From positions 224,001-288,000 of IMG/VR virus record IMGVR_UViG_3300027804_000001: 64,000 nt of DNA; one strand, written 5' to 3'. Made by a program: the position numbers and the translations under genes. The notes under the pieces were generated by a model. That model ran no database searches. It had not been told where the DNA came from and saw nothing but the letters and a program-made list of their open reading frames with translations. The stretch comes from a virus. Lineage: Duplodnaviria > Caudoviricetes. This document shows, in pieces, positions 3,502 to 46,735 of the stretch; within the stretch, counting starts at the first letter, position 1; each line of letters opens with the position of its first letter.

Positions 3502-3540
3502 TGAGTTAATATACGAAAAAAAATTGAATTTGTGAATAAA

Positions 3541-3771: not shown

Positions 3772-3790
3772 TATCTAAAACTAGTTTTTA

Positions 3791-3798
3791 TATAAATA
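3791..3798 (-). promoter_or_regulatory. putative late promoter TATTTATA
   Basis: 19 nt upstream of ATG 3771. Confidence 0.55.
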
Positions 3799-3850
3799 CT
3801 TATAATTTTGATTTATTCTTATGTTATTAATATATGTTTTTTATTTAACA

Positions 3851-4609: not shown

Positions 4610-4611
4610 GT

Positions 4612-4643
4612 TTTATAAATTAAATCTTTTTTTTGTTGCATTA
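4612..4643. repeat. 32-bp exact direct repeat, copy 1
   Basis: TTTATAAATTAAATCTTTTTTTTGTTGCATTA; identical copy at 5307-5338. Confidence 0.9.
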
Positions 4644-5305
4644 TAATTATTCAAAATTTCGGCGTCTGTCAATGACCTATTATACACTCTAAAAACATAT
4701 AATTTTCCCGACCAACCACTGGCAATTGTTGCTGCGGTTGTTAAATTCCATGTTGATGTTGCAGTTGAGTTTGCACCTGAGCTGACCTGTTCCACCGTAT
4801 TTTTAAACATTTGTCTATATGGTGTGGTATTTGTCCTTACCCTATAAGAAAAATGTCTAATCCCCGCAGTTAAATCAGAATCATTTGCATATTGTATTCT
4901 TTGGGTTACGTTACAACAACCATTAACGTCAAAATAAGTGTTACCATTACTATAGTATAAATGACTAAAAATTGCTCTTGTATCTGAACCAAGACTTGAG
5001 GTTGCTCTCCAATCAAAAAATGTATTCGTTGTTGCAGACGTTGTTTGAACATATGCTTCAATATAACATTCACTTGTAGATGAAAAACCGAACGTGTTAG
5101 AGGCGGGTCCTGTAAAAACACCACCACTACAATCAAAATAACCCGCAGAGTTCCAAGAAATATTTGCACCAAAACTGTAATTCCTATTACCAGTACTTAA
5201 ATCATACCATGTACTCCCTGAACCTGGATATGATCTATTTACACCCGCATCTAAATGTAAAACTAAACCATTTGTTACTATATTAGGTCCACCGTATGCT
5301 CCCAT
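4613..5305 (-). CDS. LamG-like lectin domain virion protein (paralog 2)
   Basis: NGLVLHLDAG...SYPGSGSTWYDLS and VYNRSLTDAEILNNYN termini shared with neighbours. Confidence 0.8.
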   Translation of the reverse strand: MGAYGGPNIVTNGLVLHLDAGVNRSYPGSGSTWYDLSTGNRNYSFGANISWNSAGYFDCSGGVFTGPASNTFGFSSTSECYIEAYVQTTSATTNTFFDWRATSSLGSDTRAIFSHLYYSNGNTYFDVNGCCNVTQRIQYANDSDLTAGIRHFSYRVRTNTTPYRQMFKNTVEQVSSGANSTATSTWNLTTAATIASGWSGKLYVFRVYNRSLTDAEILNNYNATKKRFNL

Positions 5306-5338: not shown

Positions 5339-6009
5339 AAAATTTCACCTACTTGTGTTGATGTTAATGCTCTGTTATACATTAAAACTTTCCCAACTTT
5401 ACCATTTACATAGTACGCATTGATTCCAATATCACCACCGATAGACAAAGCACCTGTGTTATAATAATTTCCACCAGATGGTGTTGTGGTTGCAGTCTCA
5501 TCATAATTGTTTCTTATAATTGTTTGTGTATTATCCGTTCTATTTAAAATTGCAGTAAACATTGCCCACGTATTAAAAGTGTAACCGATAAAACCTGTAT
5601 CTGTTCTACTACTTGCATCGTTACCTATCATAAATCTAACACCACTTGGATTGTTAGCACCAATATAATAACCATTAGAACCACCCGACCTTTTTGCAAT
5701 CCATAAATCCCAACCATCTCCAGCAATTGAAGGGTCTGAATTTACCCAACATATTATTGTAAACGACCCACTATTTGGATTTATAGTTGAACTATTTGTA
5801 ATTGAAATATAATCATCTACACCATCAAATGAAAAAACACCACCATTAGAATTATTAAAGGTTGCACCGTTTGTTAATGTCCCGTTATTACCATTTTTAG
5901 ATATATCATAAACATTATTTCCACTACCGATATAGGATCTATATGACCCAGCATCAATAGATAATACTAATCCGTTTCTTGTAAAATTAGGCCCTCTAAA
6001 AATTCCCAT
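5308..6009 (-). CDS. LamG-like lectin domain virion protein (paralog 3)
   Basis: NGLVLSIDAG, FSFDGVDDYI, MYNRALTSTQV. Confidence 0.85.
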   Translation of the reverse strand: MGIFRGPNFTRNGLVLSIDAGSYRSYIGSGNNVYDISKNGNNGTLTNGATFNNSNGGVFSFDGVDDYISITNSSTINPNSGSFTIICWVNSDPSIAGDGWDLWIAKRSGGSNGYYIGANNPSGVRFMIGNDASSRTDTGFIGYTFNTWAMFTAILNRTDNTQTIIRNNYDETATTTPSGGNYYNTGALSIGGDIGINAYYVNGKVGKVLMYNRALTSTQVGEIFNATKKRFNL

Positions 6010-7958
6010 TATTTAATTTTTTGCTCTAACGCCTCGATACGTTTTAATAACTCTTTATTTGTTTCAATTAGTAACGCAACTAATTTTTCATATTTAACAG
6101 CTTTAAATCCATTATTTCTTGTTGTTACAATTTCGGGTAAAACTTTCTCTATTTCTTGAGCAACAACACCAATATCGTGTCCTTCATTTTCATGTATTCC
6201 TTTCATTGGTACCCAATCAAATTCATAACCACTTATTTCGTTTAATTTATCCAATGAACCTTTAATTGGTCTTATATTTGTTTTTAATCTTTCATCAGAA
6301 CCATAATATGCAATTACATCATTTGTGGCTCTTATTAAACCAACAGTTGTTGGTGTTTCGGTTCCAACTCCAAGTGCACCCGAAACATATAGATTTCCGT
6401 CGACATCAACTCTCGCAGATGCGCTTACAGATAAAATTGGTGCACCTGAAATATCACCAACACTAAAAACTGTTCCAAGTAAATCGTCTGTAACCGAAAA
6501 TAATTGACCTTGTGAACCTTGTATATCTACAACAACTGAACCCGATTTATAAATTTCTAATGAACCTGAAATAGACATTACTGTTCCTGTAAATCTTGCA
6601 TTTGATTCAACTGTTACATTTGGTGATGTACTGTTTAATGTTAATAAACCATCATTAAGTGTTCCTGATAATGTTACCGTACCACTACTACCCGATGAAC
6701 CACTACTACCGCTTGAACCCGATGTTCCTGAACTTCCACTACTTCCTGATGTACCACTACTACCAGAACTTCCTGAGGATCCACTTAAACCTGAAGAACC
6801 CGAAGAACCTGATGTTCCACTACTTCCTGATGTACCAGAAGTTCCTGAAGAACCCGATGTACCTGAAGTACCCGAACTACCTGAAGATCCCGAAGAACCT
6901 GAGGTTCCACTAGTTCCTGAAGTACCAGAACTTCCACTAGTTCCACTACTACCACTTGAACCTGAACTACCTGATGATCCACTTGTACCTGAAGTACCCG
7001 AAGAACCATTACTACCACTACTACCACTTGTACCAGAAGAACCTGAGCTTCCTGATGTTCCACTACTTCCACTTGTACCTGAAGTACCACTAGAACCTGA
7101 TGTTCCACTTGTACCATTTATACCTGACGTACCACTTGAACCACTACTACCGTTACTTCCTGATGTTCCACTTGTTCCTGAACTTCCACTAGTACCTGAA
7201 GTACCTCTAGTTCCTGAACTACCAGATGTTCCTGAGGAACCACTTGAACCTGATGTACCGCTAGAACCTGATGTACCAGAACTTCCGCTTGAGCCAGAAG
7301 AACCAGATGTTCCTGAAGAACCTGAAGTACCAGAACTTCCTGATGTTCCGCTGGTACCAGATGAACCATTACTACCACTTGTTCCACTTGTACCAGATGA
7401 ACCATTACTACCACTTGTACCAGATGAACCATTACTACCACTTGTACCAGATGTTCCTGAACTTCCAGAAGAACCTGATGTTCCCGAACTACCACTACTT
7501 CCACTTGTACCTGAAGTACCACTAGTTCCTGAAGTACCTCTAGTTCCTGAACTACCAGATGTTCCTGATGAACCTGAACTACCAGATGTTCCTGATGAAC
7601 CAGAACTTCCTGAAGAACCTGATGTTCCCGATGTTCCACTACTACCACTAGTACCTGAACTTCCAGAAGAACCTGATGTACCACTAGTACCTGAAGTACC
7701 CGATGTCGCAGCCGCAAAAGTGGTACCATTTAACACTAAACTACCAGTAACTCTTAATGAACCTGTGAAATCATGACTATCATCACTTGAATTACCAAAC
7801 TTTGTTGAACCACTGCTAAATGATGCGGTTTGATATATTACCGAAGATGAAATTATGTATTGTTGTGCGACGAGATTACCCTGTATATTTAAATCTCCTG
7901 AGATGTCCGCCGAGCCTGATACAATCAGACCATTTTTGACTTTAAATTCGTTTGCCAT
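6009..7958 (-). CDS. tail fibre with Gly-Ser/Thr-Ser repeat stalk and C-terminal intramolecular chaperone (peptidase S74-like)
   Basis: 649 aa; long GTS/GSS tract; C-terminal SDERLKTNI...GYEFDW...GVVAQE...VKYEKLVALLIE plus coiled coil. Confidence 0.85.
   Translation of the reverse strand: MANEFKVKNGLIVSGSADISGDLNIQGNLVAQQYIISSSVIYQTASFSSGSTKFGNSSDDSHDFTGSLRVTGSLVLNGTTFAAATSGTSGTSGTSGSSGSSGTSGSSGTSGTSGSSGSSGSSGTSGSSGSSGTSGSSGTRGTSGTSGTSGTSGSSGSSGTSGSSGSSGTSGTSGSNGSSGTSGSNGSSGTSGTSGSNGSSGTSGTSGSSGTSGSSGTSGSSGSSGSSGTSGSSGTSGSSGSSGTSGSSGTRGTSGTSGSSGTSGTSGSNGSSGSSGTSGINGTSGTSGSSGTSGTSGSSGTSGSSGSSGTSGSSGSNGSSGTSGTSGSSGSSGSSGSSGTSGSSGTSGTSGTSGSSGSSGSSGTSGTSGSSGTSGTSGSSGTSGSSGSSGLSGSSGSSGSSGTSGSSGSSGTSGSSGSSGSSGSSGTVTLSGTLNDGLLTLNSTSPNVTVESNARFTGTVMSISGSLEIYKSGSVVVDIQGSQGQLFSVTDDLLGTVFSVGDISGAPILSVSASARVDVDGNLYVSGALGVGTETPTTVGLIRATNDVIAYYGSDERLKTNIRPIKGSLDKLNEISGYEFDWVPMKGIHENEGHDIGVVAQEIEKVLPEIVTTRNNGFKAVKYEKLVALLIETNKELLKRIEALEQKIK
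6680..7705 (-). repeat. Gly-X-Y (GTS/GSS) coding repeat, 9-bp degenerate units
   Basis: Roughly 110 consecutive triplets in the 649 aa ORF; boundaries approximate. Confidence 0.9.
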
Positions 7959-8081: not shown

Positions 8082-11000
8082 TTATATTGACAACGCTCTT
8101 GCGAACATAACTACACTCCATGTTCCTGATGATGATGTTGCCGTAACCGTTCCACTATTGGAAATTGTAAACGATATTGCTGATGTGTTACCTAAGTCAG
8201 TAGTTGTGGTTTCTGTTAATTTAGATGTTGAACCATCCCATATACCTACAATACTACCTGCTCTCATATTAGAACCATTTTTCACTAAGTAATCAAGAAC
8301 TACACCATTGTAACTTGATAATGTAAACATTGTTGATGATGTACTTACAGATTGATTACTTGTTTGAACATCTACTTTACCATTCATCAAGATATCACCT
8401 GTTAATGATAATGTTGATCCACTAAATGTTAAATTGGTTTCAACCGTTGCATTTGTTCCACTACCATCATATGTTATAACACCATTGTTTGTTGAACCTG
8501 TTAATGTTACAAGTCCTGATGTACCTGATGTACCTGCTGTACCACTTGAACCGCTTGTTCCTGAAGAACCACTTGAACCGCTTGAACCTGAAGTACCAGA
8601 TGTTCCACTTGTACCAGATGAACCCGAAGTACCTGATGTTCCAGAACTTCCTGATGTTCCACTACTTCCTGAAGAACCACTTGTACCAGCAGTTCCTGAT
8701 GAACCTGAACTTCCTGATGTTCCACTACTTCCACTAGTACCTGAACTACCCGATGTTCCTGATGTTCCAGAACTTCCTGAAGAACCAGATGAACCTGATG
8801 AACCTGAGCTACCTGATGAACCAGAAGTTCCCGAAGTACCTGATGAACCAGAAGAACCTGAACTACCACTTGTTCCTGAACTACCAGAAGAACCTGAGCT
8901 TCCTGATGTTCCACTACTTCCACTTGTTCCTGAACTACCACTTGTACCGGCTGTTCCTGAAGAACCACTTGTACCAGCCGTTCCTGAACTACCTGAAGTA
9001 CCTGAGGTTCCACTTGTTCCTGATGAACCAGATGAACCCGATGTACCAGAACTTCCTGATGAACCAGATGTACCCGATGAACCACTTGTACCAGCGGTTC
9101 CTGATGAACCACTTGAACCAGATGTACCCGAAGTACCTGATGAACCACCACCACCTTCACCGAGTGTAACCGCAACTAAACCTGCTTGTGGTGATGAAAA
9201 TCCTATTTCAATATTATATAAGTCAATCGCTTCAATTGTCTGTGGTATAATTGAAAAACCATTTGTATCATAAACTTGTACAACAGGATATTTTGCACCT
9301 AAATCGTGTTGGAATGACCATGTTGTTGAAGGTGAGTTAACGGTTAATGAATTATATGCTCCCACAGTTGTACTACCTGAGCTACCGCTTGTTCCTGAAG
9401 AACCCGATGTACCAGATGTACCTGCAGTACCACTACTTCCTGAAGAACCACTAGAACCTGAAGTTCCACTTGTTCCACTACTTCCTGAACTACCACTAGA
9501 ACCTGAAGTACCTGATGTACCTGAGGTACCACTACTTCCCGAACTACCACTAGAACCTGATGTTCCTGAGGACCCTGAAGTACCAGATGTTCCACTTGTT
9601 CCTGAAGAACCAGATGAACCTGATGTACCACTAGAACCTGATGTACCACTTGAACCAGATGTACCCGAAGTACCTGATGTTCCACTTGTACCATCTGCAC
9701 CTGTAGCACCATCTAAGTTAATTGACCAAGATGAATACGTACCACTACCGATTGTTCCATTTGCATCAGGTGCAGAGAATGTTAATGTTGTACCACTATA
9801 ACTTACTACGTCTGATTCTTGATAATTGTTTACATTATAAGCAATGATGATTGATTGTCCAACTGAGTAACTTAATCCCGTAGGAACTGTAACTGAACCA
9901 CCTTGTCCTAATGTATGTGTTGAATTCGATGTTGTTTTATAAACTTCTGAAGTACCTGAAGTACCTGATGTACCAGCTGTTCCTGAAGAACCACTTGTAC
10001 CCGAAGAACCCGAAGAACCTGATGTTCCAGAAGTTCCTGAACTTCCTGATGAACCACTAGAACCTGATGTTCCTGATGTACCAGATGAACCAGAACTTCC
10101 TGAACTACCACTTGTACCTGAAGTACCCGCAGTTCCAGAACTTCCTGATGAACCACTAGAACCCGAAGTACCACTACTTCCACTTGTTCCTGAACTTCCA
10201 GATGAACCCGAACTTCCACTCGTTCCTGAAGAACCAGATGTACCACTTGTACCGGCAGTTCCACTACTTCCTGAAGAACCTGAACTTCCGCTTGTTCCTG
10301 AAGAACCGGATGTACCTGAACTTCCTGAAGAACCACTAGAACCTGATGTTCCACTTGTTCCACTACTTCCTGAACTACCACTAGAACCACTTGTACCGGC
10401 TGTTCCTGAAGAACCACTTGTACCAGATGTTCCACTACTTCCCGATGTTCCCGCAGTTCCTGAACTACCTGAAGTTCCAGATGTACCAGAAGAACCTGAT
10501 GAACCCGATGTACCCGCAGTTCCAGAACTTCCTGAAGAACCACTAGAACCTGATGTACCAGATGTTCCTGATGAACCACTTGTTCCTGAAGATCCACTTG
10601 AACCTGATGTACCAGATGTACCCGCAGTTCCACTACTACCACTACTTCCACTTGAACCTGAAGTACCAGATGTTCCTGATGAACCACTAGAACCACTTGA
10701 ACCTGAAGTACCACTTGTACCAGATGTACCTGAAGTACCATCAGCACCCGTAGCACCATCTAAGTTAATAACCCAATTAGAATATGTACCGCTACCAATT
10801 GTACCGTTAGCATCTGGAGTATCAACTGTTATTGTTGTTCCACTATATGAAACCACATGAGACTCTTGATAATTGTTGACATCATACGCTATGATAATAG
10901 ACTGACCAACAGTGTAACTTAATCCACTTGGTACAGTAAATGACCCCGAATTACCTAATGTATGTGTGGTTGTTGATATTGTTTTATAAACTTCCGAAGT

Positions 11001-13166
11001 ACCTGATGTACCCGATGTACCCGCAGTTCCACTACTTCCTGATGAACCCGAAGAACCTGATGTACCTGATGTTCCACTTGTACCAGCGGTTCCTGATGAA
11101 CCACTAGAACCTGAAGTACCTGACGTACCACTACTTCCTGATGAACCACTAGAACCCGAAGTACCAGAAGAACCTGACGTACCTGATGAACCAGAACTTC
11201 CTGAAGAACCACTTGTACCAGATGTACCACTTGTTCCTGAAGAACCCGAACTTCCTGAAGAACCAGATGTTCCACTTGTACCAGATGAGCCATCACTACC
11301 ACTAGTTCCTGAAGTACCAGATGTACCAGATGAACCTGAGGTACCAGATGTTCCTGATGAACCACTAGAACCTGATGTTCCTGAAGTACCTGAACTTCCT
11401 GAAGTACCAGATGAACCACTAGAACCTGAAGTTCCACTTGTTCCACTACTTCCTGAACTACCACTAGAACCACTTGTTCCTGAGGTACCAGATGAACCCG
11501 AGGTACCAGATGAACCTGATGTACCTGAACTTCCAGATGTTCCACTTGTACCACTTGAACCACTTGAACCCGAACTTCCGCTTGTACCAGATGTTCCGCT
11601 TGAACCCGAGGTACCGGACGAACCAGAACTTCCTGAAGAACCACTTGTACCAGATGTACCAGCCGTTCCCGAACTTCCTGAAGATCCACTAGAACCTGAT
11701 GTTCCTGAAGTTCCAGAACTTCCAGATGTACCTGAAGAACCATCTGCACCTGTTGCACCATCTAAATTGATAGTCCATGATGAATATGTACCACTACCAA
11801 TAGTACCATTAGAATCTGGTGCTGTAAACGTTAAAGTAGTACCACTATATGATACTACATCCGATTCTTGGTAGTTATTTACGTTATATGCTATTATAAT
11901 TGATTGACCAACGGTATAACTTAAACCACTCGGTACAGTTAATGAACCCGCTTGTCCTAAAGTAAATGTATCTGTTGATGTTGTTTTATAGACCTCTGAG
12001 GTACCTGATGAACCACTTGTACCAGCTGTTCCTGATGAACCACTCGTTCCCGAACTTCCTGAACTACCACTAGAACCCGATGTACCTGAAGTACCAGATG
12101 TTCCACTTGTTCCTGAACTTCCTGAACTACCACTAGAACCTGAAGTACCTGAAGTACCTGAAGTACCACTACTTCCACTTGTTCCTGCTGTTCCCGAACT
12201 TCCTGATGAACCACTAGAACCTGATGTTCCTGATGTTCCACTTGTACCACTTGAACCATCACTACCACTGGTTCCCGAACTTCCTGATGAACCACTAGAA
12301 CCTGATGTTCCTGATGTACCACTAGAACCTGATGTTCCTGAACTACCAGATGTACCCGCAGTACCACTTGTTCCTGAAGAACCGGATGTACCTGAACTTC
12401 CTGAAGATCCACTAGAACCAGAAGAACCTGATGTTCCTGAAGTACCGGCAGTACCTGAACTTCCTGAAGATCCACTTGTACCTGATGTACCAGAACTACC
12501 GCTTGTACCTGAAGTGCCTGAACTTCCTGATGTACCACTAGAACCTGAGGTACCAGCTGTTCCTGATGAACCACTAGAACCTGATGTTCCTGATGAACCA
12601 TTACTTCCCGAAGAACCACTTGAACCAGAACTACCACTTGTACCTGAAGTACCTGAGCTTCCCGATGTACCAGATGAACCTGATGTTCCTGACGTACCCG
12701 AAGTTCCAGATGAACCACTAGTACCACTAGAACCACTTGAACCCGAAGTACCTGAACTTCCTGAAGAACCAGATGTACCTGATGATCCACTTGTTCCTGA
12801 TGTACCACTAGAACCTGATGTTCCTGAAGTACCCGATGTTGCAGCCGTATATTCAGTACCATTTATTGATAACGAACCTGTAACTGAAAAAGAACCAGTA
12901 AATTGATGTGTATCGTCTAAACTATCACCAAATTTTGTGGAACCAGAAGAAAATGACGTTGTAATATAACTTACAGAAGATGAGACTATAAATTGATTGG
13001 CGGACAAATTACCACCAACAACTAAATCACCACTAATATTTTGACTACCTGAAACATTTAATGAACCTGTTACACTTAACGATCCAGATATTTGTGAGGA
13101 GCCTGTTATATTTGCTCCACCCTGGTCAACAATTAGACCATTTTTTACTATAAATTGATTTGCCAT
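8082..13166 (-). CDS. giant fibre protein with five Gly-Ser/Thr-Ser tracts separated by globular modules
   Basis: 1694 aa; three copies of an EVYKT...W.INLDG module and one WSFQHDLG..YP module; N-terminus homologous to the 649 aa fibre. Confidence 0.8.
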   Translation of the reverse strand: MANQFIVKNGLIVDQGGANITGSSQISGSLSVTGSLNVSGSQNISGDLVVGGNLSANQFIVSSSVSYITTSFSSGSTKFGDSLDDTHQFTGSFSVTGSLSINGTEYTAATSGTSGTSGSSGTSGTSGSSGTSGSSGSSGTSGSSGSSGTSGSSGTSGTSGTSGSSGTSGSSGTSGTSGSSGSSGSSGSNGSSGTSGSSGSSGTAGTSGSSGTSGSSGTSGTSGSSGTSGTSGSSGSSGTAGTSGTSGSSGSSGSSGSSGTSGSSGTSGTAGTSGSSGTSGSSGTSGTSGSSGSSGSSGTSGSDGSSGTSGTSGTSGSSGSSGSSGTAGTSGSSGTSGTSGTSGSSGSSGSSGTSGTSGTSGTSGSSGSSGSSGTSGSSGTAGTSGSSGTSEVYKTTSTDTFTLGQAGSLTVPSGLSYTVGQSIIIAYNVNNYQESDVVSYSGTTLTFTAPDSNGTIGSGTYSSWTINLDGATGADGSSGTSGSSGTSGTSGSSGSSGSSGTAGTSGTSGSSGSSGSSGTSGSSGTSGTSGSSGSSGSSGTSGTSGSSGTSGSSGTSGSSGTSGTSGSSGSSGSSGTSGTSGSSGSSGTSGSSGTSGTSGSSGSSGTSGTSGSSGTSGTSGTSGSDGSSGTSGTSGSSGSSGSSGTSGTSGTSGSSGSSGSSGTSGSSGTSGSSGSSGSSGTSGTSGSSGSSGTAGTSGTSGTSGSSGSSGSSGTAGTSGTSGTSEVYKTISTTTHTLGNSGSFTVPSGLSYTVGQSIIIAYDVNNYQESHVVSYSGTTITVDTPDANGTIGSGTYSNWVINLDGATGADGTSGTSGTSGTSGSSGSSGSSGTSGTSGSSGSSGSSGTAGTSGTSGSSGSSGTSGSSGTSGTSGSSGSSGSSGTAGTSGSSGSSGTSGTSGSSGTAGTSGSSGTSGTSGSSGTAGTSGSSGSSGSSGTSGTSGSSGSSGSSGTSGSSGTSGSSGSSGSSGTAGTSGTSGSSGTSGSSGSSGSSGTSGSSGTSGSSGSSGSSGTAGTSGTSGSSGSSGSSGTSGTSGSSGSSGSSGTSGTSGSSGSSGTSGSSGTAGTSGTSGTSEVYKTTSNSTHTLGQGGSVTVPTGLSYSVGQSIIIAYNVNNYQESDVVSYSGTTLTFSAPDANGTIGSGTYSSWSINLDGATGADGTSGTSGTSGTSGSSGTSGSSGTSGSSGSSGTSGTSGTSGSSGTSGSSGSSGSSGTSGTSGTSGSSGSSGSSGTSGTSGSSGSSGSSGTAGTSGTSGSSGTSGSSGSTTVGAYNSLTVNSPSTTWSFQHDLGAKYPVVQVYDTNGFSIIPQTIEAIDLYNIEIGFSSPQAGLVAVTLGEGGGGSSGTSGTSGSSGSSGTAGTSGSSGTSGSSGSSGTSGSSGSSGTSGTSGTSGSSGTAGTSGSSGTAGTSGSSGTSGSSGTSGSSGSSGSSGTSGSSGSSGSSGTSGTSGSSGSSGSSGSSGSSGSSGTSGTSGSSGTSGSSGTSGSSGSSGTAGTSGSSGSSGTSGSSGTSGTSGSSGTSGTSGTSGSSGSSGSSGTSGSSGTAGTSGTSGLVTLTGSTNNGVITYDGSGTNATVETNLTFSGSTLSLTGDILMNGKVDVQTSNQSVSTSSTMFTLSSYNGVVLDYLVKNGSNMRAGSIVGIWDGSTSKLTETTTTDLGNTSAISFTISNSGTVTATSSSGTWSVVMFARALSI
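8515..12835 (-). repeat. interrupted Gly-X-Y (GTS/GSS/GTA) coding repeat region
   Basis: Tracts at about 11997-12833, 10990-11757, 9950-10755, 9370-9715 and 8515-9140. Confidence 0.9.
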
Positions 13167-13253: not shown

Positions 13254-15482
13254 TTATAAAAATGTCGTCATTGACTTGAATGTCCAATTCGCACTTGCGT
13301 TTACTTTCAATTCAACATGACCTTCATTTGAAACCGTTACATCAAAAGATGCATCACTTGTATCTCCAATATCTGCCGTTGTTGTTTCATTAAAATTTAC
13401 ACTATTATTATTCCACACCGCAACAACTATACCCGCTCTCGCATTTGAATTATCATAAATTGTATAATTGTAAAACGCTGACGTGTATGAACCCGTTAAT
13501 GTTGACACTACAGTATTAGAACCTGGTGAAACATTTGACAATGAATTTTTTAGTTGTGCGTTGGTAACATCAATACTACCTGTAACAATTAATGATCCTG
13601 ATATGGTTGTATCATTACCTATTGTTACTATAGTTCCTGTATCAACAATAGATGAGTTTGTAACACCTGTTGCCGATTCAAATTTGACAACAGTATTTAC
13701 ATTACCATTAATTGAAACTGATGTTCCACTTGTTCCTGAAGTACCCCCACTTCCACTAGTTCCAGATGTTCCACTAGAACCTGATGTACCCGAAGTTCCA
13801 GATGATCCACTACTACCGCTAGTACCACTTGTGCCTGATGTTCCTGAAGTTCCTGCTGAACCTGAAGTACCACTACTACCACTTGTGCCCGATGTTCCTG
13901 AAGTACCGGCTGAACCCGATGTTCCACTACTACCGCTAGTACCCGAAGAACCAGAACTTCCACTTGTTCCCGAAGTACCAGAACTTCCACTTGTTCCCGA
14001 AGTACCGGCTGAACCTGATGTTCCACTACTACCAGATGAACCACTACTACCACTTGTACCAGCAGTGCCACTACTACCACTTGTACCGGCAGTACCACTA
14101 CTACCACTAGTACCTGATGAACCACCACCACCTTCACCGAGTGTTGCAACTACAATACCCGCAATTGGTTGTGAAAATGTAATTGTTGCATTGTATAAAT
14201 CAACCGCTAAAATCTCTTGAGGTATAACTTGGTAACCATATTCATCAAATACTTGAAATACGGGATATCTTGCACCTAAATCATGATTAAAATACCACAC
14301 GTCTGACGGTGTTGTAACCGTCATTGATTCATAAGCACCTACTGTTGTACTACCTGAAGAACCCGAACTACCTGATGTTCCACTAGTTCCTGAAGTACCA
14401 CTACTTCCTGAACTACCTGAAGTACCTGAGGTTCCACTAGTTCCCGATGTACCACTAGTACCGGCAGTACCACTACTACCACTTGTACCCGAAGTACCGG
14501 ATGAACCATTACCACCAATCGTTGCAATTACTGTACCTGCTGTTGGTAATGCAAAATAAACATCTAAATTATTTGCATCTAATACTTTAATTTCAGTTGG
14601 GATGATGACCCTATCACTGTTATCAAAAACATTAATTGCTGGATATTTGTAATCTAAATTGTGATTAAAAGACCATGTTGTTTGTTGTGAACTCACAACA
14701 AGTGTTCTTGTCATACCCGAAACAGGGTATGCAGAATCAACATAATTTACTAAAGAGGCCGATAATGCCGATACATTGAATGTTACTTCTTTAATGTAAC
14801 CGTTATCATTTGTATCAACCATTGATGTGGTGATTTCTAAACCACCTTCACCGATAAATTCAACAACATCTGAACCTGTTGCTCTAACTAAATCCTGACC
14901 TTCAACAAATATATCTCTAAAGTGTGAACCAATAGAAACAAATGCGGTACCATCAAAAGATTCACTAACATTTAATCCCGTACTATCGTCAAATTGTAAT
15001 TTGGTAAATTGTTTATCATATGTATTACCATCAACATCAGAACCTGAAATATGAAATGGTACATTTGTTAAACCTAAACCACTACCTGTAAATTCTGTTG
15101 CAGTAATTGAACCTGTTACAGATAAATTTACATTAACTTGTAAACCATCTTCATCAATAGATGCGGTCGCATTACCACTTGCAATTTGAGATAAGTTTAA
15201 TCCTGTGATACCACTTGCCGGAATATTATAAAGACCTTGTCCATCACCTATGAATGAACCCGTAAAAAATGATGCTGTTACATTATCTGTTAGATAAATT
15301 GAACCTGTATTAACCGTGTTTGTTGCAACTAATTCTTGTATTGAAGGACCTAACGCACCTGAAACCGCAAAAAATACTTTACCGTCAGTAGTATTAATTG
15401 ATAATTCCCCTAGTTGTAGATTAGCGTTGGTCGGTTTCCTACCCGATACAGCGCTCCTACGTAGCTTTACTATTTGTGCCAT
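13254..15482 (-). CDS. tail fibre protein with tropism-determinant-like N-terminus and Gly-Ser/Thr-Ser tracts
   Basis: 742 aa; MAQIVKLRRS...P....LQLGELSINTTDGKVF head-attachment-type N-terminus; two W.FNH.L..YP modules. Confidence 0.75.
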   Translation of the reverse strand: MAQIVKLRRSAVSGRKPTNANLQLGELSINTTDGKVFFAVSGALGPSIQELVATNTVNTGSIYLTDNVTASFFTGSFIGDGQGLYNIPASGITGLNLSQIASGNATASIDEDGLQVNVNLSVTGSITATEFTGSGLGLTNVPFHISGSDVDGNTYDKQFTKLQFDDSTGLNVSESFDGTAFVSIGSHFRDIFVEGQDLVRATGSDVVEFIGEGGLEITTSMVDTNDNGYIKEVTFNVSALSASLVNYVDSAYPVSGMTRTLVVSSQQTTWSFNHNLDYKYPAINVFDNSDRVIIPTEIKVLDANNLDVYFALPTAGTVIATIGGNGSSGTSGTSGSSGTAGTSGTSGTSGTSGTSGSSGSSGTSGTSGTSGSSGSSGSTTVGAYESMTVTTPSDVWYFNHDLGARYPVFQVFDEYGYQVIPQEILAVDLYNATITFSQPIAGIVVATLGEGGGGSSGTSGSSGTAGTSGSSGTAGTSGSSGSSGSSGTSGSAGTSGTSGSSGTSGTSGSSGSSGTSGSSGTSGSAGTSGTSGTSGSSGTSGSAGTSGTSGTSGTSGSSGSSGTSGTSGSSGTSGTSGSGGTSGTSGTSVSINGNVNTVVKFESATGVTNSSIVDTGTIVTIGNDTTISGSLIVTGSIDVTNAQLKNSLSNVSPGSNTVVSTLTGSYTSAFYNYTIYDNSNARAGIVVAVWNNNSVNFNETTTADIGDTSDASFDVTVSNEGHVELKVNASANWTFKSMTTFL

Positions 15483-27448: not shown

Positions 27449-27951
27449 TAGTTATTATTTCTTTCTCTTATTATTGGGTTCACCGCATCCTCAAATGCTA
27501 AATGAAATTTAATTAATTTTTGAATCGTATTTAAAGTTTCGTCCTCAACTTTTAACATATCTGCATTTATATAAAATCCAGATTCTTCTCCTGATATCAA
27601 TACAAAATTAATATCAACATCGGGAATCGACCCATCTAATCTAATTTGGTTCATGTTTATTGTGAAACCAGGTTCTAAATTAGCAAGTTGTGATACCTGT
27701 TCTCTGAAGGAATCAACCAATCCAGATAACGTGTTTTTCTGATTATCGGTTAATTTCATATCCTGATTGTCAGAAGACAACATTTTAACATCAACATCGT
27801 TAATAACGTCGATATTATCGTCTATTTTATCTGTTTGAGGTAATTCCTCTTCTTTTAGGATTTTAGTGTTTCTTGTTGACTCTGTGAGATTCCTCATAAT
27901 GTTTAACATCTTTTTGGTCTCATCGTATCCTATATTTTTTCTATTTGTCAT
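27448..27951 (-). CDS. hypothetical protein
   Basis: 167 aa; TATTTATA motif 43 nt upstream. Confidence 0.75.
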   Translation of the reverse strand: MTNRKNIGYDETKKMLNIMRNLTESTRNTKILKEEELPQTDKIDDNIDVINDVDVKMLSSDNQDMKLTDNQKNTLSGLVDSFREQVSQLANLEPGFTINMNQIRLDGSIPDVDINFVLISGEESGFYINADMLKVEDETLNTIQKLIKFHLAFEDAVNPIIRERNNN

Positions 27952-28546
27952 GATTAAATAATATTCTAAAATTGAATGATGGGTTTATATCTGTATAAAT
28001 ATTTGAAAAGTTCGATTTACATACAATACCGTTAAATTTGGAGATATTTTCCAAATAACCTTGTGATGGGACGTGTTGTTTGAATATTTCGTGTTTTTCA
28101 CACAACATATCACATAGTTCTGAAACCTTCTCTATTTGTATTTCGTTATATTTGTCCCAATAGTAGTAGTTCCTCCAATTTTTTATAAAAGGTTCGGATC
28201 TATATGGGTCTCCAACCCAATTTGTATATATACCATTTATTGTATTTTTATTTAACCAACCGAGATTTTCAATTGCAATCTTAATCTGTTTTTTATCTAC
28301 CTTGGGTTCATTGAATGTGACGGAACTATGGTTGGTATCAAAAATTTGAAAAACCATACCTAACTTATTTACAATAAAATGTGGGATATCTTCGTAATTT
28401 CCGTTCTTACGATATTTTAATTTTTGAACAAAATCATCTACCCTTCTTTGAGTGTCATAAAGTAAAATTTGAGTTTTTTTACTTTTCCTTCTGGTGATGT
28501 TTAATTTGTCCTTATCTAATACGTCTACGTCTTGAATTACCAACAT
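27941..28546 (-). CDS. N-acetylmuramoyl-L-alanine amidase-like protein (Amidase_2 fold, degenerate Zn site)
   Basis: IPHFIVNKLGMVFQ, IKIAIENLGW and TDINPSFNF match the fold; expected HxT reads YDT. Confidence 0.65.
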   Translation of the reverse strand: MLVIQDVDVLDKDKLNITRRKSKKTQILLYDTQRRVDDFVQKLKYRKNGNYEDIPHFIVNKLGMVFQIFDTNHSSVTFNEPKVDKKQIKIAIENLGWLNKNTINGIYTNWVGDPYRSEPFIKNWRNYYYWDKYNEIQIEKVSELCDMLCEKHEIFKQHVPSQGYLENISKFNGIVCKSNFSNIYTDINPSFNFRILFNHDK

Positions 28547-30008: not shown

Positions 30009-30302
30009 TTACCACTTAGTGACCTCTTTTTGTAATTTAGATATTTCTTCATCTATTTGTGTTTGACGTTGAACATCTAAAATTTTACGGTCAGTCGCCT
30101 GTATCATCCTTTTTTCGGATTTTAACCCCTCCACTTGTAAAATAATGGTTAATTCCCTTTTATTATATGTGGAATCTTTAATTTGTTTTATTTCGTTTTT
30201 AATTTTGGTTATTTCTCTACTATCTGAACATCCTTTAAAAAATGTTAATAGTACCACAACCAATACAATAATTGTAAAATTATTTTCAATAAACTTTTTC
30301 AT
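30009..30302 (-). CDS. putative lipoprotein with coiled coil
   Basis: MKK + hydrophobic core + FKGC lipobox-like site, then heptad-rich helix. Confidence 0.65.
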   Translation of the reverse strand: MKKFIENNFTIIVLVVVLLTFFKGCSDSREITKIKNEIKQIKDSTYNKRELTIILQVEGLKSEKRMIQATDRKILDVQRQTQIDEEISKLQKEVTKW

Positions 30303-30317
30303 ACGATATTTTTACTT

Positions 30318-31127
30318 TTATAAATAGTTTAATAGCTCAAAACTTTCGTTTCTTAGCTTCTTTATTGCTTTATCTTTCAATTGTCTAATCCTTTCTTTAG
30401 TACAACCAAACTCTTCTCCAAGGTCTTCCAAGTTAGATTCTACACCTGTTAATCCAAAATATTTTGTTACAATAATACGTTCTCTTTCATCTAAAATACC
30501 TAACATTAATTGTACTTTCTTTTTGATTTCTTCATTTGAATTCAAAATTTGTTCGGGTGATTCTGCGTTATTATTAGGTATCACATCTAAAAGAGTGTCA
30601 CCATCTTCATTTATTTGACTGAACAAACCAACACAATATGGTAAGTTATTACTAAACGGGACTTCATCGGTACTTGAAAACTTATCTTCTTCAGGTACCT
30701 CATCTTTTCTTTTATTCTTTTGTGCCTCTTGTACTAAATTTGAGGGGATTCTAATTGTTCGTGCGTTTTCATTTAGTGATGCCATTATGGATTGTCTTAC
30801 CCACCAAACTGCATACGAAATAAATTTAAGTCCACTGGTAGGATCAAATTTTTCTGATGCTTTCATTAATCCAATGTTACCTTCAGATATTAAATCCATG
30901 ATATCTAATCCCTGATTTTGATACATCTTAGCAACAGATATAACGAATCTCAAATTTCCAACAACTAATTCATTGTAAAGAGATGTCCTTTCATTCTTAG
31001 ATAAATTCTTATTTCGTAATTCTTCAAAAATAACTTCTTGTCTTTCGTGTGTAATGACAGGAATTTTACGAATGTCTTTGATGTACTGTTGGATTTCTTC
31101 GGTGGAGATAATAACAGACTTTTTCAT
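30318..31127 (-). CDS. RNA polymerase sigma-70 family factor (Bacteroidota primary-sigma-like)
   Basis: NLRFVISVAKMYQNQG..DLISEGNIGL...KFISYAVWWVRQSI (region 2); LEDLGEEFGCTKERIRQL (region 4.2). Confidence 0.92.
   Translation of the reverse strand: MKKSVIISTEEIQQYIKDIRKIPVITHERQEVIFEELRNKNLSKNERTSLYNELVVGNLRFVISVAKMYQNQGLDIMDLISEGNIGLMKASEKFDPTSGLKFISYAVWWVRQSIMASLNENARTIRIPSNLVQEAQKNKRKDEVPEEDKFSSTDEVPFSNNLPYCVGLFSQINEDGDTLLDVIPNNNAESPEQILNSNEEIKKKVQLMLGILDERERIIVTKYFGLTGVESNLEDLGEEFGCTKERIRQLKDKAIKKLRNESFELLNYL
30319..30326 (-). promoter_or_regulatory. putative late promoter TATTTATA
   Basis: Overlaps the sigma gene stop; 16 nt upstream of ATG 30302. Confidence 0.55.
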
Positions 31128-31177: not shown

Positions 31178-31627
31178 TCACTTATCAAAATTATCCAAGA
31201 ATTTTTTTTCGTCATCCGTTAAACTATCTAATCCGGCCTTTTCAATCTTTTCTAAAACCTCATCTAAATCAAAATTCTTTTTACTAGGTTTTATATATTC
31301 AACCCTAATATTCATTGAGTTTTCTTGTGGTTTGAAAATGAAATCTTTAAGTTTCTGTGGTAAATGTGCTGTAACTATTGTATCTGTTGGGAATAATAAA
31401 TAAAACTTTATAGTGTCATTTGTCATAATTGATAATAACTCTGTGGACAAATTGACTGGTGGATAATCAGAATCAAATATAACAATTATATTGTTATTAC
31501 TTTCTATGACGTATCGTAAAGTTTTAATTGCGGGTGAATCCAATAGAATATCCATACAAAAAAACTCTACTTCTTCATGGTCTTCAAATGTACCATAAAT
31601 AAAAAGAGTATATGATTTTAAATCCAT
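31178..31627 (-). CDS. hypothetical protein with C-terminal DUF6576-like motif
   Basis: LDEVLEKIEKAGLDSLTDDEKKFL; start trimmed to ATG at 31627. Confidence 0.65.
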   Translation of the reverse strand: MDLKSYTLFIYGTFEDHEEVEFFCMDILLDSPAIKTLRYVIESNNNIIVIFDSDYPPVNLSTELLSIMTNDTIKFYLLFPTDTIVTAHLPQKLKDFIFKPQENSMNIRVEYIKPSKKNFDLDEVLEKIEKAGLDSLTDDEKKFLDNFDK

Positions 31628-31628: not shown

Positions 31629-32276
31629 TTAGTAACGATTACCCTTAGATCGAATTTTCCAATAGACTCCACCACCAACGTATGGTGAAAGTTTACCTAT
31701 TGTATTATCAAAAACTCTATTATTTAACCCTACATCAACTCTAAAAATTTTATCCGACTTAGTTTTCATCATTGCACCAACACCTAAAGAATTAACAAAA
31801 TCTTGTTGATTCATACTAAAATTGAATCCGTAATAAAATTTATTTTTTGGTTCTTCGGGTATTCTTAATGTGTCAAGAACTATTTGTTTTTTAATTTTTG
31901 AATTAGAAATATTTCTTTCAATTACTTTATTCTCACTAACAACTTCATCCAATACTAATGTTCCCACATTGTTGGGTAAAGTCAACGTTTCTGAAATTTT
32001 ATTCTTAGCAAAATAAACTTTTAAAATATTGGCAGTGTCAACTGGTTGTATTATTTGAACCTCGACAGGAACCTTAACCTCAATAGGGACTTCAACCGGT
32101 ACTTCTACTTCAACTTCCACCTCCACACTATCATGTACAGGGTATGGTATTGAATCAACAATTCTAGTATATTCTACTCTATTTGGCATTATACCCTTAG
32201 GATTACAATACTCCAATACCGCAATTAATAATAAGATTAAAATTATTATATTTCTTAATTCAAATATTTTTTTCAT
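31629..32276 (-). CDS. envelope protein: N-terminal TM helix, VEVPV linker, C-terminal amphipathic beta-strands
   Basis: IIILILLLIAVLEYC anchor; ends FYYGFNF...PYVGGGVYWKI; start trimmed to ATG at 32276. Confidence 0.65.
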   Translation of the reverse strand: MKKIFELRNIIILILLLIAVLEYCNPKGIMPNRVEYTRIVDSIPYPVHDSVEVEVEVEVPVEVPIEVKVPVEVQIIQPVDTANILKVYFAKNKISETLTLPNNVGTLVLDEVVSENKVIERNISNSKIKKQIVLDTLRIPEEPKNKFYYGFNFSMNQQDFVNSLGVGAMMKTKSDKIFRVDVGLNNRVFDNTIGKLSPYVGGGVYWKIRSKGNRY

Positions 32277-32277
32277 T

Positions 32278-32706
32278 TTATTTAACAAGTAAAACCGATG
32301 TGGCAATCACACCAACGAAAGTTCCAACTTTATAAAGAAAGGTCTTTCTTCTTTGTCCTTTTAGTTCTTTTAATAAACTATTAGACTTTTCTCTTTCAAG
32401 TGAAAATTGTTCGTCTTTTTTTATTATTATCGTTTCTAAGTTTGCAATCTTTTGATCTTTAAGGGTGTCTTTTTGTTTTAAAAGAGATATTTGTTCGTCT
32501 TTTAATTTTATAACATTACCCAATTCTTTAACTTCGGATATTGCTCCGTCACCCTTAATTAAATCTTTGATAACCAACTTAGCGATTGGAACTTTTAGTG
32601 GTACTATCGTGTCCTGAGCCACCGATTTCTCGTCCTTCGTAACGGTCTGAGAAAAACTTAGCAAGGTCACTAAAAGTAAACTCGTTAACAGCATCAACTT
32701 TTTCAT
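32278..32706 (-). CDS. secreted coiled-coil protein with C-terminal hydrophobic anchor (spanin-like)
   Basis: Signal peptide MKKLMLLTSLLLVTLLSFS-Q; C-terminal FLYKVGTFVGVIATSVLLV. Confidence 0.65.
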   Translation of the reverse strand: MKKLMLLTSLLLVTLLSFSQTVTKDEKSVAQDTIVPLKVPIAKLVIKDLIKGDGAISEVKELGNVIKLKDEQISLLKQKDTLKDQKIANLETIIIKKDEQFSLEREKSNSLLKELKGQRRKTFLYKVGTFVGVIATSVLLVK

Positions 32707-32968
32707 TTGTGTTATTTTTAATAATTGTTATGTTTTTTGTTACCTTATCGATGTCACCATCAATGTTATTAATTTCTTTATCTATTGTTATAATTTTATC
32801 GGTTATTTTTTCATTTAAAACGTATACCGAATCTATTTCTTTTTGAATAGAGTCAATCTTGGTATTATACCCATTTATGTCGGTTTTTATACCTTTCATC
32901 TGAAAAATGGAATAACCTGCTAAAACTACAATTAACAATAAAAGAACGTCTTGTTTATTTAGTTTCAT
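32579..32968 (-). CDS. N-anchored coiled-coil protein (i-spanin-like)
   Basis: VLLLLIVVLAGYSIF TM then a long heptad repeat; 128-nt overlap with the next gene. Confidence 0.65.
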   Translation of the reverse strand: MKLNKQDVLLLLIVVLAGYSIFQMKGIKTDINGYNTKIDSIQKEIDSVYVLNEKITDKIITIDKEINNIDGDIDKVTKNITIIKNNTNEKVDAVNEFTFSDLAKFFSDRYEGREIGGSGHDSTTKSSNR

Positions 32969-32983: not shown

Positions 32984-32991
32984 TATAAATA
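32984..32991 (-). promoter_or_regulatory. putative late promoter TATTTATA
   Basis: Between the clpP terminator and ATG 32968. Confidence 0.6.
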
Positions 32992-32995: not shown

Positions 32996-33025
32996 AAAAA
33001 AAATAAGGGGATTAAAAATCCCCTC
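32996..33025 (-). terminator. intrinsic terminator after clpP
   Basis: GAGGGGATT-TTT-AATCCCCTT followed by ATTTTTTTT. Confidence 0.8.
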
Positions 33026-33051
33026 ATTTATTTCTACCCATTTTACCTATC

Positions 33052-46727: not shown

Positions 46728-46735
46728 TATAAATA
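46728..46735 (-). promoter_or_regulatory. putative late promoter TATTTATA
   Basis: Upstream of ATG 46704. Confidence 0.6.

Follow-up and report, generated by a model that had tools for sequence, protein, structure and literature searches.

A three-gene envelope cassette without a lipobox in a huge freshwater phage is a candidate module for outer-membrane disruption

Results

Three tightly coupled genes for putative envelope proteins

We analysed a 64,000-nucleotide stretch (the window; positions 224,001 to 288,000 of IMG/VR record IMGVR_UViG_3300027804_000001) of a phage of roughly 330 kb. On its minus strand lie three adjacent genes, here denoted g1, g2 and g3, followed by a fourth coupled gene (Table 1). 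The first-pass annotation, made from the sequence alone, had described these as a cassette behind one late-type motif, comprising a protein with an N-terminal TM and a long coiled coil, an ORF overlapping it by 128 nt with a cleavable signal peptide, a coiled coil, a C-terminal hydrophobic anchor and no lipobox Cys, and a protein with an N-terminal TM, an extended linker and about four amphipathic strands ending GVYWKI. Our analysis confirmed this observation, with two corrections: g3 of the window does contain one Cys (C24), although it is not conserved in its clade, where the motif is LEF[VI]NPKG, and a fourth coupled gene follows g3 after 1 nt.

Table 1. Features of the cassette and its surroundings (positions in the window)
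Position	Strand	Feature	Description
33001..33029	-	Terminator-like hairpin	Intrinsic-terminator-like, 13 pairs plus a T run; ends the upstream ClpP unit
32984..32991	-	TATTTATA	Late-type promoter-like motif, 23 nt upstream of the g1 ATG
32579..32968	-	g1	129 aa, bitopic; N-terminal TM (9-27), roughly 100-aa coiled-coil-like periplasmic part; architecture like an i-spanin
32579..32706	-	g1/g2 overlap	128 nt, dual-coded: g1 C-terminus and, in the +1 frame, g2 signal peptide
32278..32706	-	g2	142 aa; SPI-type signal peptide (..SFSQ/T), short N-terminal region, 89-residue continuous helix running into a C-terminal TM (123-141); no Cys
31629..32276	-	g3	215 aa; N-terminal signal-anchor, NPKG motif, VEVEVPVEV linker, helix plus three-strand subdomain (81-128), four-strand amphipathic beta meander (146-205) with a G-x-x-aromatic-x-hydrophobic end, basic tail; large unannotated family linked to lysis cassettes
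31178..31627	-	Fourth coupled gene	149 aa, cytoplasmic, C-terminal DUF6576 motif; ATG 1 nt after the g3 stop
30009..30302	-	p97	Small protein with a signal or TM, a conserved Cys (F-K-G-C) and a coiled coil, behind its own TATTTATA at 30326
27941..28546	-	Amidase_2-like protein	23.5 bits, below the cut-off of 26; nearest candidate wall hydrolase

Apart from its TM-like segment, g1 gave only sub-threshold matches to coiled-coil families in Pfam and coiled-coil noise in PHROGs (E>=1.7e-4). In g2, hydrophobic segments were detected at residues 4-22 and 123-141, and the N-terminus MKKLMLLTSLLLVTLLSFSQT looks like an SPI signal; no Cys was found in any of 30 aligned homologues. The AF2 model of g2 has a signal helix at 2-19 and one continuous helix at 53-141 (mean pLDDT 79.6). 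Neither g2 nor g3 gave a significant match in Pfam or PHROGs. Homologues of g3 show that its true start is the ATG at 32276 and not the TTG at 32306. The fourth gene follows g3 also in relatives that lack g1 and g2. A DNA search of the phage collection found only short ClpP matches.

The overlap of g1 and g2 is dual-coding

To examine whether the overlap is real, we compared the locus with its relatives, because a chance open +1 frame of 25 codons is not rare in this genome (about 0.11-0.15) and the overlap could therefore not be accepted on length. In nine distinct loci the g2 ATG lies at nt 263 of g1, in the +1 frame, with overlaps of 74-128 nt, and the g2 stop abuts the g3 ATG (TAAATG, TAAAATG or TAATG). 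The mean pairwise identity at g1 third codon positions is 0.47-0.50 outside the overlap and 0.80 inside it, which is the signature of selection on the second frame.

The cassette shares a late-type motif with tail-fibre-like genes

TATTTATA occurs 13 times in sense and 2 times in antisense in the window. Twelve of the 13 sense copies lie 12-72 nt upstream of an ORF start, including three tail-fibre-like genes (13254-15482, 6009-7958 and 8082-13166), suggesting that the cassette belongs to the late class. The copy preceding g1 lies just after the terminator hairpin. Freshwater RNA-library contigs from two studies cover the cassette, and one 983-nt contig with 0 mismatches spans g1, g2 and part of g3. 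Contigs over ClpP begin at 33023 and 33036, and contigs from two studies end at 32953 and 32965, at the g1 start; these are weak hints only, as contigs cannot show strand, level or true ends and cannot exclude DNA carry-over. No cover was seen at 31213-31613.

g3 belongs to a large family without annotation

A search with g3 gave 777 hits, and the family comprises at least 1352 clusters (50% identity, E<=1e-3), with no Pfam or PHROG match above threshold. A tblastn search of five family members against 50,697 phage records found only MW202828.1, and no cultured phage. A search for loci related to the proteins P0224 and P0256 found nothing. A scan of genome contigs gave only a 1.8-kb contig binned to a Bacteroidetes MAG, a weak hint of the host.

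g3 has one N-terminal TM (4-22) and a low-confidence linker, and its AF2 model has the helix plus three strands and four long strands ending GGGVYWKI plus the basic tail. Across 48 diverse homologues the four strands keep a strict alternation of a hydrophobic face and a Gly/Tyr/Asn/Lys face, and W206 is invariant. A G-x-x-aromatic-x-hydrophobic end occurs in 77 of 129 family representatives, followed by 1-6 or more basic residues; such a basic tail is unusual for outer-membrane proteins. The hydrophobic face of the sheet could equally be the core of a soluble sandwich. In profile searches, two of 48 members gave weak hits to OMP_b-brl (PF13505; best E 7e-4), and one of 48 matched DUF6808 (PF20647) at E 0.0045, a family that look-alike clusters in the Atlas carry in 12-30% of members; DUF6808 is undescribed, and no paper mentioning it was found. 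No YadA_anchor match was found in 41 and 48 members at E<=1 and E<=0.01, respectively.

A PDB sequence-profile search with the g3 alignment gave one chance-level row, and Foldseek against the PDB found nothing at E<=0.001. VIA-align matched residues 144-209 weakly to the membrane anchors of trimeric autotransporters (AtaA, Z 5.2, rmsd 2.6, 56 aligned; Hia, Z 4.9, rmsd 2.7, 56 aligned, 21% identity; YadA, Z 4.4, rmsd 2.3, 55 aligned). Its top rows were pore hairpins (RCD-1, Z 5.9, rmsd 6.6, 82 aligned; gasdermin B, Z 5.8, rmsd 5.6, 73 aligned). All matches are below Z 6, the range that the tool calls common.

To learn whether g3 might self-associate, we predicted three copies of residues 75-215. 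The prediction scored ipSAE 0.47, against 0.00 for the best of 3 controls, although one of three runs scored 0.02. In calibration this mark was reached by 20 of 30 proteins solved as pairs of one chain and by 1 of 23 proteins solved as single chains, counts that hold only roughly here because our own alignment and three copies were used. The runs agree in at least 81% of contacts, and the partner's pLDDT is at least 59. Strand 146-159 is predicted to pair with strand 197-208 of the next copy, but copy 1 strand 4 and copy 2 strand 1 were not confidently in contact, hence the ring was not confidently closed and its size is not fixed by the model. The model supports binding but does not show it.

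Relatives of g3 lie beside holins and endolysins

Synteny with endolysins in relatives had been proposed beforehand as a check on the lysis reading, and it proved positive for g3. In many small phage contigs the family lies next to holins and to endolysins of six different families, often with a single-pass coiled-coil partner. The arrangements, which come from independent lineages (L numbers denote individual loci of the family), are [Phage_holin_4_1][g3-like][Peptidase_M15_3] in MW202828.1, [holin_4_1][g3-like][Peptidase_M15_4] in L109, [N-TM coiled coil][2-TM][g3-like][Amidase_2] in L102-L108, [g3-like][2-TM][Amidase_3] in L112, [g3-like][2-3-TM][GH19] in L120, [N-TM coiled coil][g3-like][2-TM][Phage_lysozyme] in L125-L132, and [N-TM coiled coil][2-TM][g3-like][M15_4] in L014. 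Of 113 neighbour proteins from 21 loci, 11 matched peptidoglycan-hydrolase families. g1 shows no similarity to the N-TM coiled-coil protein of L014, indicating that the partners share architecture but not detectable homology.

In the window itself the cassette is not adjacent to a holin or an endolysin. The Amidase_2-like gene is about 3 kb away and has Asp where a related protein has the His of the H-x-T motif; a phmmer search of this protein against the PDB gave no match. In the jumbo relatives L116/L130, g3-like lies two genes after a homologue of it (39% identity). Furthermore, in large clades g3-like lies directly upstream of a T4-type terminase gene with no lysis gene in view (80 loci, and also L115, L118, L119, L121, L123 and L124), and relatives exist that carry g3 without g1 and g2, indicating that the trio is not an obligate unit.

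To examine whether a lipoprotein gene is hidden nearby, we scanned five cassette regions (33100-27400 of the window, L020, L104, L109 and L128) with a regular expression and found no canonical lipobox ORF. g3 therefore occupies the slot where an outer-membrane disruptor is expected.

Discussion

With moderate confidence, we read g1-g2-g3, together with the coupled DUF6576 gene, as a late operon of a freshwater phage, probably of a Bacteroidota host, encoding a spanin-equivalent envelope complex for the last step of lysis, the breaching of the outer membrane. In this view g3 is the core: it would be held in the inner membrane by an uncleaved N-terminal anchor, and a roughly 55-residue extended linker would carry its C-terminal domain across the periplasm, where the four amphipathic strands would join edge to edge with those of other copies into a beta-barrel-like oligomer in or on the outer membrane. 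g1 and, after signal cleavage, g2 would be inner-membrane-anchored helical stalks of 10-15 nm, made in fixed proportion through the overlap and the stop-start junctions, and would probably dock on g3. Once the endolysin removes the wall, the complex is proposed to be free to collapse or cluster and to rupture or fuse the outer membrane, as spanins do. Our data demonstrate the gene structure, the dual coding, the conservation, the shared late-type motif, the lysis-cassette context of the g3 family and the predicted self-association, whereas localisation, partners (including the roles of g1 and g2), the requirement for outer-membrane disruption and the rupture mechanism are inferred, the function from context only.

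The interpretation in the first-pass annotation, disruption of the outer membrane by an atypical topology with gene 3 bridging the inner membrane to an oligomeric outer-membrane barrel, is thus supported in part. The lysis context of g3, the shared motif and the absence of a canonical lipobox ORF in the regions scanned support it, but the specific topology is only weakly supported: the structural matches are low, the three-copy ring is not confidently closed, and three family representatives have cleavable signals in place of an anchor, so bridging is not universal.

The cassette is not a member of any spanin family. It resembles the overlapped two-component spanins (lambda Rz/Rz1 family; P2 LysB/LysC type; PMC6139136) in that the first gene encodes an N-terminal-TM protein with a periplasmic coiled coil, a feature conserved in the nine loci, the second starts inside it in the +1 frame and runs past its end, expression appears to be of the late class, and relatives of the third gene sit in holin-endolysin cassettes. 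This is a match of architecture only. The overlapped gene g2 has an SPI-type signal, no Cys and a C-terminal TM, and hence is not an outer-membrane lipoprotein; g1 and g2 have no periplasmic Cys, a third, larger beta-rich protein is the conserved core, and there is no sequence similarity to any spanin family in Pfam or PHROGs. With the unimolecular spanin (T1 gp11 type) g2 shares its size and linear layout of N-terminal export signal, periplasmic domain and C-terminal TM, but gp11 reaches the outer membrane through a lipoylated Cys, which g2 lacks. g3, which has no C-terminal TM, could link both membranes within one chain, but would be the mirror image, with an inner-membrane anchor at the N-terminus and an outer-membrane element at the C-terminus, and would use beta strands rather than a lipid.

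The anchors of trimeric autotransporter adhesins (YadA, Hia, AtaA), which form a 12-strand barrel as a trimer, likewise have a C-terminal unit of four long amphipathic strands with a Gly-rich inner face, and the predicted pairing of strand 1 with strand 4 between copies is similar. However, no coiled-coil stalk enters the strands of g3, as the model has a linker and no helix before strand 146, and a basic tail follows the last strand. Disruptin (phiKT gp28), the known non-spanin outer-membrane disruptor, is, by the title of the preprint, a cationic antimicrobial peptide (bioRxiv 10.1101/515445). g3 is proposed to act at the same step, in phages without a recognisable spanin, and ends in a cationic amphipathic stretch (W-K-I-K-L-K-K). 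Disruptin is small and is not known to carry an export signal, whereas g3 is a 215-aa protein predicted to be exported and folded.

Among the alternatives, the one that survives best, although we consider it unlikely, is that the cassette is lysis-related but acts at another step: g3 would form pores in the outer membrane by itself, as a gasdermin- or haemolysin-like sheet of hairpins, or g1, g2 and g3 would regulate the holin as an antiholin or lysis-timing sensor. The lysis-cassette context fits this equally, the top structural rows are pore hairpins, the open head-to-tail sheet of the three-copy model fits a larger ring, and members with cleavable signals need no inner-membrane anchor. Single-TM proteins with periplasmic domains serve as holin and antiholin in T4. 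However, those cassettes already hold a recognisable holin (Phage_holin_4_1 or small 2-TM proteins), and the pore-hairpin alignments have high rmsd. Nothing in our data distinguishes a pore from a fusion mechanism.

Less likely still is a superinfection-exclusion or receptor-masking device, in which envelope proteins made late would block entry of other phages or stop progeny from adsorbing to debris, like T5 Llp or lambdoid Cor. All three proteins carry predicted export signals or membrane anchors, the position of g3-like varies between clades (after ClpP, before the terminase, or in lysis cassettes), and a study of huge freshwater phages of possibly the same group suggests surface remodelling against superinfection (PMC9723584). 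On the other hand, the gene holds a fixed syntenic position over 45-100% identity within clades and is placed repeatedly between holin and endolysin, with six endolysin families swapped around it, whereas exclusion genes are usually sporadic accessory genes.

A lipoprotein reading of the g3-like proteins is very doubtful. A Cys directly follows the N-terminal hydrophobic stretch in 79 of 129 family representatives, the window's g3 has C24, and a single-pass coiled-coil partner often accompanies g3-like, but position -2 is R, Q or K in 62 of the 79 and position -1 is S, G or A in only 36 of the 79, which does not fit the L-[AS]-[GAS]-C lipobox. That the proteins are virion or assembly components, which the first-pass annotation had named as the refuting case, is highly improbable: despite the motif shared with tail-fibre genes, the terminase and portal genes next to g3-like in some clades and the weak g1 matches to coiled-coil virion PHROGs, the Sec-type signals and membrane anchors on all three proteins argue against cytoplasmic virion assembly. 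TonB-like and FtsB/FtsL/FtsQ-like readings of the trio were dropped because no profile or fold match supports them.

The spanin census lists 91 of 677 phages of Gram-negative hosts with no spanin found, and its table of spanin-less phages includes phages of Bacteroides and Croceibacter (PMC6139136). Only one alternative, disruptin, has been described. The g3 family, with more than a thousand clusters and no annotation, sits where the missing component should be, beside interchangeable holins and endolysins, and a cassette of holin, g3-like and M15 peptidase is small enough to make the question accessible to synthesis and assay. It is possible, though we put this only tentatively, that the family is a new, widespread class of outer-membrane-disruption protein, a non-lipoprotein whose C-terminal four-strand units assemble into an oligomeric barrel in the outer membrane while its N-terminus, or coiled-coil partners such as g1 and g2, holds the inner membrane; it would then replace lipoprotein spanins in many freshwater Bacteroidota phages, from 40-kb podoviruses to 330-kb jumbo phages. 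If g3 inserts into the outer membrane while anchored in the inner membrane, this would also be an unusual topology for membrane-protein biogenesis. In practice, annotation pipelines that require a lipobox miss these genes, and gene callers truncate g2 to avoid the overlap, giving forms of 113-126 aa.

Organization of the g1-g2-g3 cassette

Downstream of clpP we noticed a terminator hairpin of 13 bp, followed by the motif TATTTATA and by three genes, denoted g1, g2 and g3. The genes of this region lie on the minus strand. This confirms the observation of a three-gene envelope cassette made in the first-pass annotation. The protein encoded by g1 has one TM-like segment (residues 9-27), whereas the rest of it matches only coiled-coil families, below threshold. 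g2 starts 128 nt before the g1 stop, in the +1 frame, and encodes a protein with an SPI-type signal (..LLSFSQT), no Cys and a hydrophobic C-terminus at residues 123-141. An AlphaFold2 model of g2 built with 30 homologues gives a signal helix at 2-19, a low-confidence stretch at 20-38 and one continuous helix at 53-141, with pLDDT above 90 over most of it. g3 starts at an ATG 1 nt after the g2 stop. It has an N-terminal anchor (4-22), a conserved NPKG motif and a VEVEVPVEV linker of low confidence; the model then shows a helix plus three strands (81-128) and four long strands at 146-205, ending GGGVYWKI and a basic tail. A fourth gene, encoding a cytoplasmic DUF6576 protein without TM, starts 1 nt after the g3 stop. 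It is translationally coupled to g3 and travels with g3-like genes in three jumbo clades (represented by the loci L001, L017 and L126). Its C-terminal motif (LD..L.KI...G..SLT.EEK.FL) resembles short oligomerisation or anchor motifs.

Coordinates of the cassette and of the neighboring and motif-associated features in the window
Feature	Position	Strand	Size or remark
ClpP gene	33768-33052	minus	
Terminator hairpin	33029-33001		13 bp
TATTTATA upstream of g1	32991-32984		
g1	32968-32579	minus	129 aa
g2	32706-32278	minus	142 aa
g3	start (ATG) at 32276	minus	215 aa
DUF6576 protein gene	31627-31178	minus	
Phage sigma factor gene	30318-31127		
p97	30009-30302	minus	97 aa; own TATTTATA at 30326
Amidase_2-like protein gene	27941-28546		
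Tail-fibre-like gene	13254-15482		tail-fibre PHROG match, E 4e-22
Tail-fibre-like gene	6009-7958		tail-fibre PHROG match, E 1e-47
Gene between the two tail-fibre-like genes			1694 aa

The g1/g2 overlap is conserved in both reading frames

To examine whether the overlap could have arisen by chance, we estimated the frequency of open +1 frames. An open +1 frame of 25 codons is not rare here (about 0.11-0.15), indicating that length alone proves nothing. Conservation, however, does. In nine distinct loci, with g3 identity down to 42-50%, the g2 ATG lies at nt 263 of g1, the overlap is 74-128 nt, the signal peptide is kept (MKKLILL..S[FY]SQT) and the g2 stop abuts the g3 ATG. Mean pairwise identity at g1 third codon positions is 0.47-0.50 outside the overlap and 0.80 inside it, while first positions, which are third positions of g2, fall to 0.65. 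This is the expected signature of two frames under selection. g2 is the most conserved of the three genes, with 1901 hits, mostly above 70% identity, although automatic gene callers often shorten it to 113-126 aa, which removes the signal.

A strand-specific promoter-like motif precedes the cassette and tail-fibre genes

The motif, in the form [AG]TATTTATA, occurs 13 times in sense and twice in antisense in the window (e.g. at 46735, 46091, 45157, 32991, 30326, 17994, 15554, 13208, 8013 and 3798). Twelve of the 13 sense copies lie 12-72 nt upstream of an ORF start, and among these ORFs are the two tail-fibre-like genes and the gene between them. The motif is promoter-like and probably defines the late class, read with the phage sigma factor. 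It also precedes the next envelope cluster (p97).

Two freshwater RNA libraries from different studies contain the region. One contig of 983 nt with no mismatch runs from 31971 to 32953, covering part of g3, all of g2 and nearly all of g1. Contigs end at 32953 and 32965, while contigs over ClpP begin at 33023 and 33036, which fits a transcript that starts just after the motif. As contigs show neither strand nor true ends, and DNA carry-over is possible, we consider this a weak hint only. One RNA-library contig (depth 9.1) lacks one base at 27944, inside the 11-nt overlap between the end of the amidase-like gene and the start of the next gene, reflecting a strain variant or an assembly error.

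g3 belongs to a large unannotated family

A word-indexed search with g3 gave 777 homologues, all about 211-217 aa, on contigs of up to 333 kb. A profile search of 1.84 billion representatives gave 1352 clusters at E<=1e-3 and 421 at E<=1e-10. Neither Pfam nor PHROGs annotates the family; of 48 diverse members, two touch OMP_b-brl at 7e-4 and one touches DUF6808. The ESM Atlas lists only viral look-alike clusters, and no cultured phage in a collection of 50,697 phage records carries the family.

g3-like genes lie beside holins and endolysins in small phage contigs

To learn about the context of g3, we compared the loci of its relatives (numbered with the prefix L). Within the jumbo clade the order is fixed: SbcD, SbcC-like, ClpP, g1, g2, g3, DUF6576, sigma factor, p97, a multi-TM protein and the Amidase_2-like protein. 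A sister jumbo clade (L017, positions 1058-4673, and L018) has ClpP followed directly by g3-like (with Cys, LLDRC), then DUF6576, the sigma factor, a p97-like gene and a multi-TM protein, with no g1/g2, indicating that the coiled-coil pair was gained or lost as a unit. Another jumbo clade (L116/L130) places g3-like two genes after a homologue of the window's amidase-like protein (39% identity). The window's protein reads LLYDT where this relative (L116, 1664-2257) reads ILTHT, and it scores 23.5 against Pfam's cut-off of 26. It may be a non-catalytic or metal-variant wall-binding protein, so that the true endolysin may lie elsewhere in the genome.

The decisive context comes from small phage contigs, where g3-like genes lie beside wall hydrolases of six families. 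Six unrelated wall hydrolases swapped around one constant gene is the mosaic pattern of lysis cassettes. Among 113 neighbor proteins from 21 loci, the commonest Pfam family was Amidase_2 (5), followed by Phage_lysozyme (3), holin_4_1 (2), and Amidase_3, M15_4 and GH19 (1 each). A regular-expression scan found no canonical lipobox ORF in the window region or in four of these cassettes (L020, L104, L109 and L128). Not every context fits, however. In a large T4-like clade (80 loci, L022-L101, of 100-250-kb phages, e.g. L074 at 3995-4642) and several others (L016, L115, L118, L119, L123 and L124), g3-like lies directly upstream of the T4-type large terminase gene. In the T4-like clade it abuts the start of this gene, a 222-aa Cys-rich protein lies upstream, the portal gene lies two genes further on, and no lysis gene is in view.

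Gene order around g3-like genes in small phage contigs
Locus	Gene order	Remark
MW202828.1	[Phage_holin_4_1][g3-like][Peptidase_M15_3]	60.8 kb; holin 36 bits, peptidase 56 bits
L109	[holin_4_1][g3-like][Peptidase_M15_4]	opposite-strand genes on both sides
L102-L108	[N-TM coiled-coil protein][2-TM protein][g3-like][Amidase_2]	Amidase_2 with an intact HHT motif
L112	[g3-like][2-TM protein][Amidase_3]	
L120	[g3-like][2-3-TM protein][GH19]	
L125-L132	[N-TM coiled-coil protein][g3-like][2-TM protein][Phage_lysozyme]	
L014	[N-TM coiled-coil protein][2-TM protein][g3-like][M15_4]	

Predicted structure and self-association of the g3 C-terminus

Across 48 diverse members the four C-terminal strands keep a strict alternation, in which one face is V/I/L/F and the other is Gly/Tyr/Asn/Lys. 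G150 and W206 are invariant, and K207 is nearly so (47 of 48). The end fits G-x-x-aromatic-x-hydrophobic in 77 of 129 representatives, resembling the beta-signal of outer-membrane proteins, and is followed by 1-6 or more basic residues. Structural alignment with VIA-align against 48,161 chains placed residues 144-209 on the anchors of trimeric autotransporters: AtaA (Z 5.2, rmsd 2.6, 56 aligned), Hia (Z 4.9, rmsd 2.7, 56 aligned, 21% identity) and YadA (Z 4.4, rmsd 2.3, 55 aligned). It also placed them on pore hairpins and on 8-strand barrels, and all these scores are in the range that the program classes as common. A Foldseek search found nothing.

To examine whether g3 may associate with itself, we modelled three copies of residues 75-215. 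The prediction gave ipSAE 0.47 (runs 0.48, 0.02 and 0.47), against 0.00 for the best of three controls. In calibration the mark was reached by 20 of 30 proteins solved as pairs of one chain and by 1 of 23 solved as single chains, counts that hold only roughly here. The runs agree in at least 81% of contacts and the partner's pLDDT is at least 59. In this model strand 146-159 of one copy pairs antiparallel with strand 197-208 of the next, but the ring is not confidently closed with three copies. The model supports self-association; it does not show it.

The N-terminal Cys of the g3 family is not part of a lipobox

We noticed that 79 of 129 representatives have a Cys just after the hydrophobic stretch. 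Position -2 is R/Q/K in 62 of these and position -1 is S/G/A in only 36, indicating that this is not a lipobox. Three representatives have cleavable ALAQK-type signals. In the window's clade the motif is LEF[VI]NPKG without Cys, and the window's own C24 is sporadic.

A Cys is also found in p97, which has an N-terminal hydrophobic stretch, a conserved Cys in F-K-G-C / L-K-S-C and a coiled coil, and which overlaps the start of a 418-aa four-TM protein. p97 is kept in relatives that lack g1/g2 (L017) and could be a lipoprotein-like (o-spanin-like) lysis component or another anchored stalk. Two unrelated exported phage proteins, g3-like and p97, share a juxtamembrane [KRQ]-[SGA..]-C motif that does not fit the classical lipobox. 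It could be a disulfide-forming Cys, or a phage- or Bacteroidota-specific processing site.

A putative role at the outer-membrane step of lysis

The family is exported, judging by its sequence, is built like an outer-membrane beta protein at its C-terminus, and occupies the third slot of holin-endolysin cassettes in hosts that have an outer membrane. The most economical reading is that it performs the outer-membrane step of lysis. In this view, g3 of the window's phage keeps an inner-membrane anchor and a linker long enough to cross the periplasm (we estimate that about 55 extended residues span roughly 19 nm), and would be joined by two inner-membrane helical stalks, g1 and g2, made in fixed ratio. 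Small-phage cassettes often carry one such single-pass coiled-coil partner, although we detected no homology to g1 for that of L014. Rupture may be by fusion, as for spanins, or by a large pore, and the present data favor neither.

The gene arrangement, the conservation of both frames and the lysis-cassette context of g3-like genes are results of this analysis, whereas the location of the proteins, their partnership and their activity at the outer membrane are inferred. We are highly confident that the cassette is real, late and exported, and it is likely that g3 is a lysis-cassette component. That it acts at the outer-membrane step is about as likely as not, and the bridging-barrel mechanism is tentative. 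The spanin-equivalent interpretation of the first-pass annotation is partly supported, by strong context evidence for gene 3, while the topology it proposed, with gene 3 bridging the inner membrane to an oligomeric outer-membrane barrel, is plausible but unproven.

The system would work like a spanin system and copies the overlapped gene architecture (PMC6139136). The step, outer-membrane disruption, is a known one; the variation here is that the cassette lacks the defining feature of o-spanins and u-spanins, the lipoylated Cys, and shares no detectable homology with them. Literature searches found no description of a beta-barrel-type disruptor. A 2025 survey states that Bacteroidetes phages use only unimolecular spanins, under a pipeline that requires a lipobox and a TM region (PMC12596118); such a pipeline would miss, or mislabel, this family.
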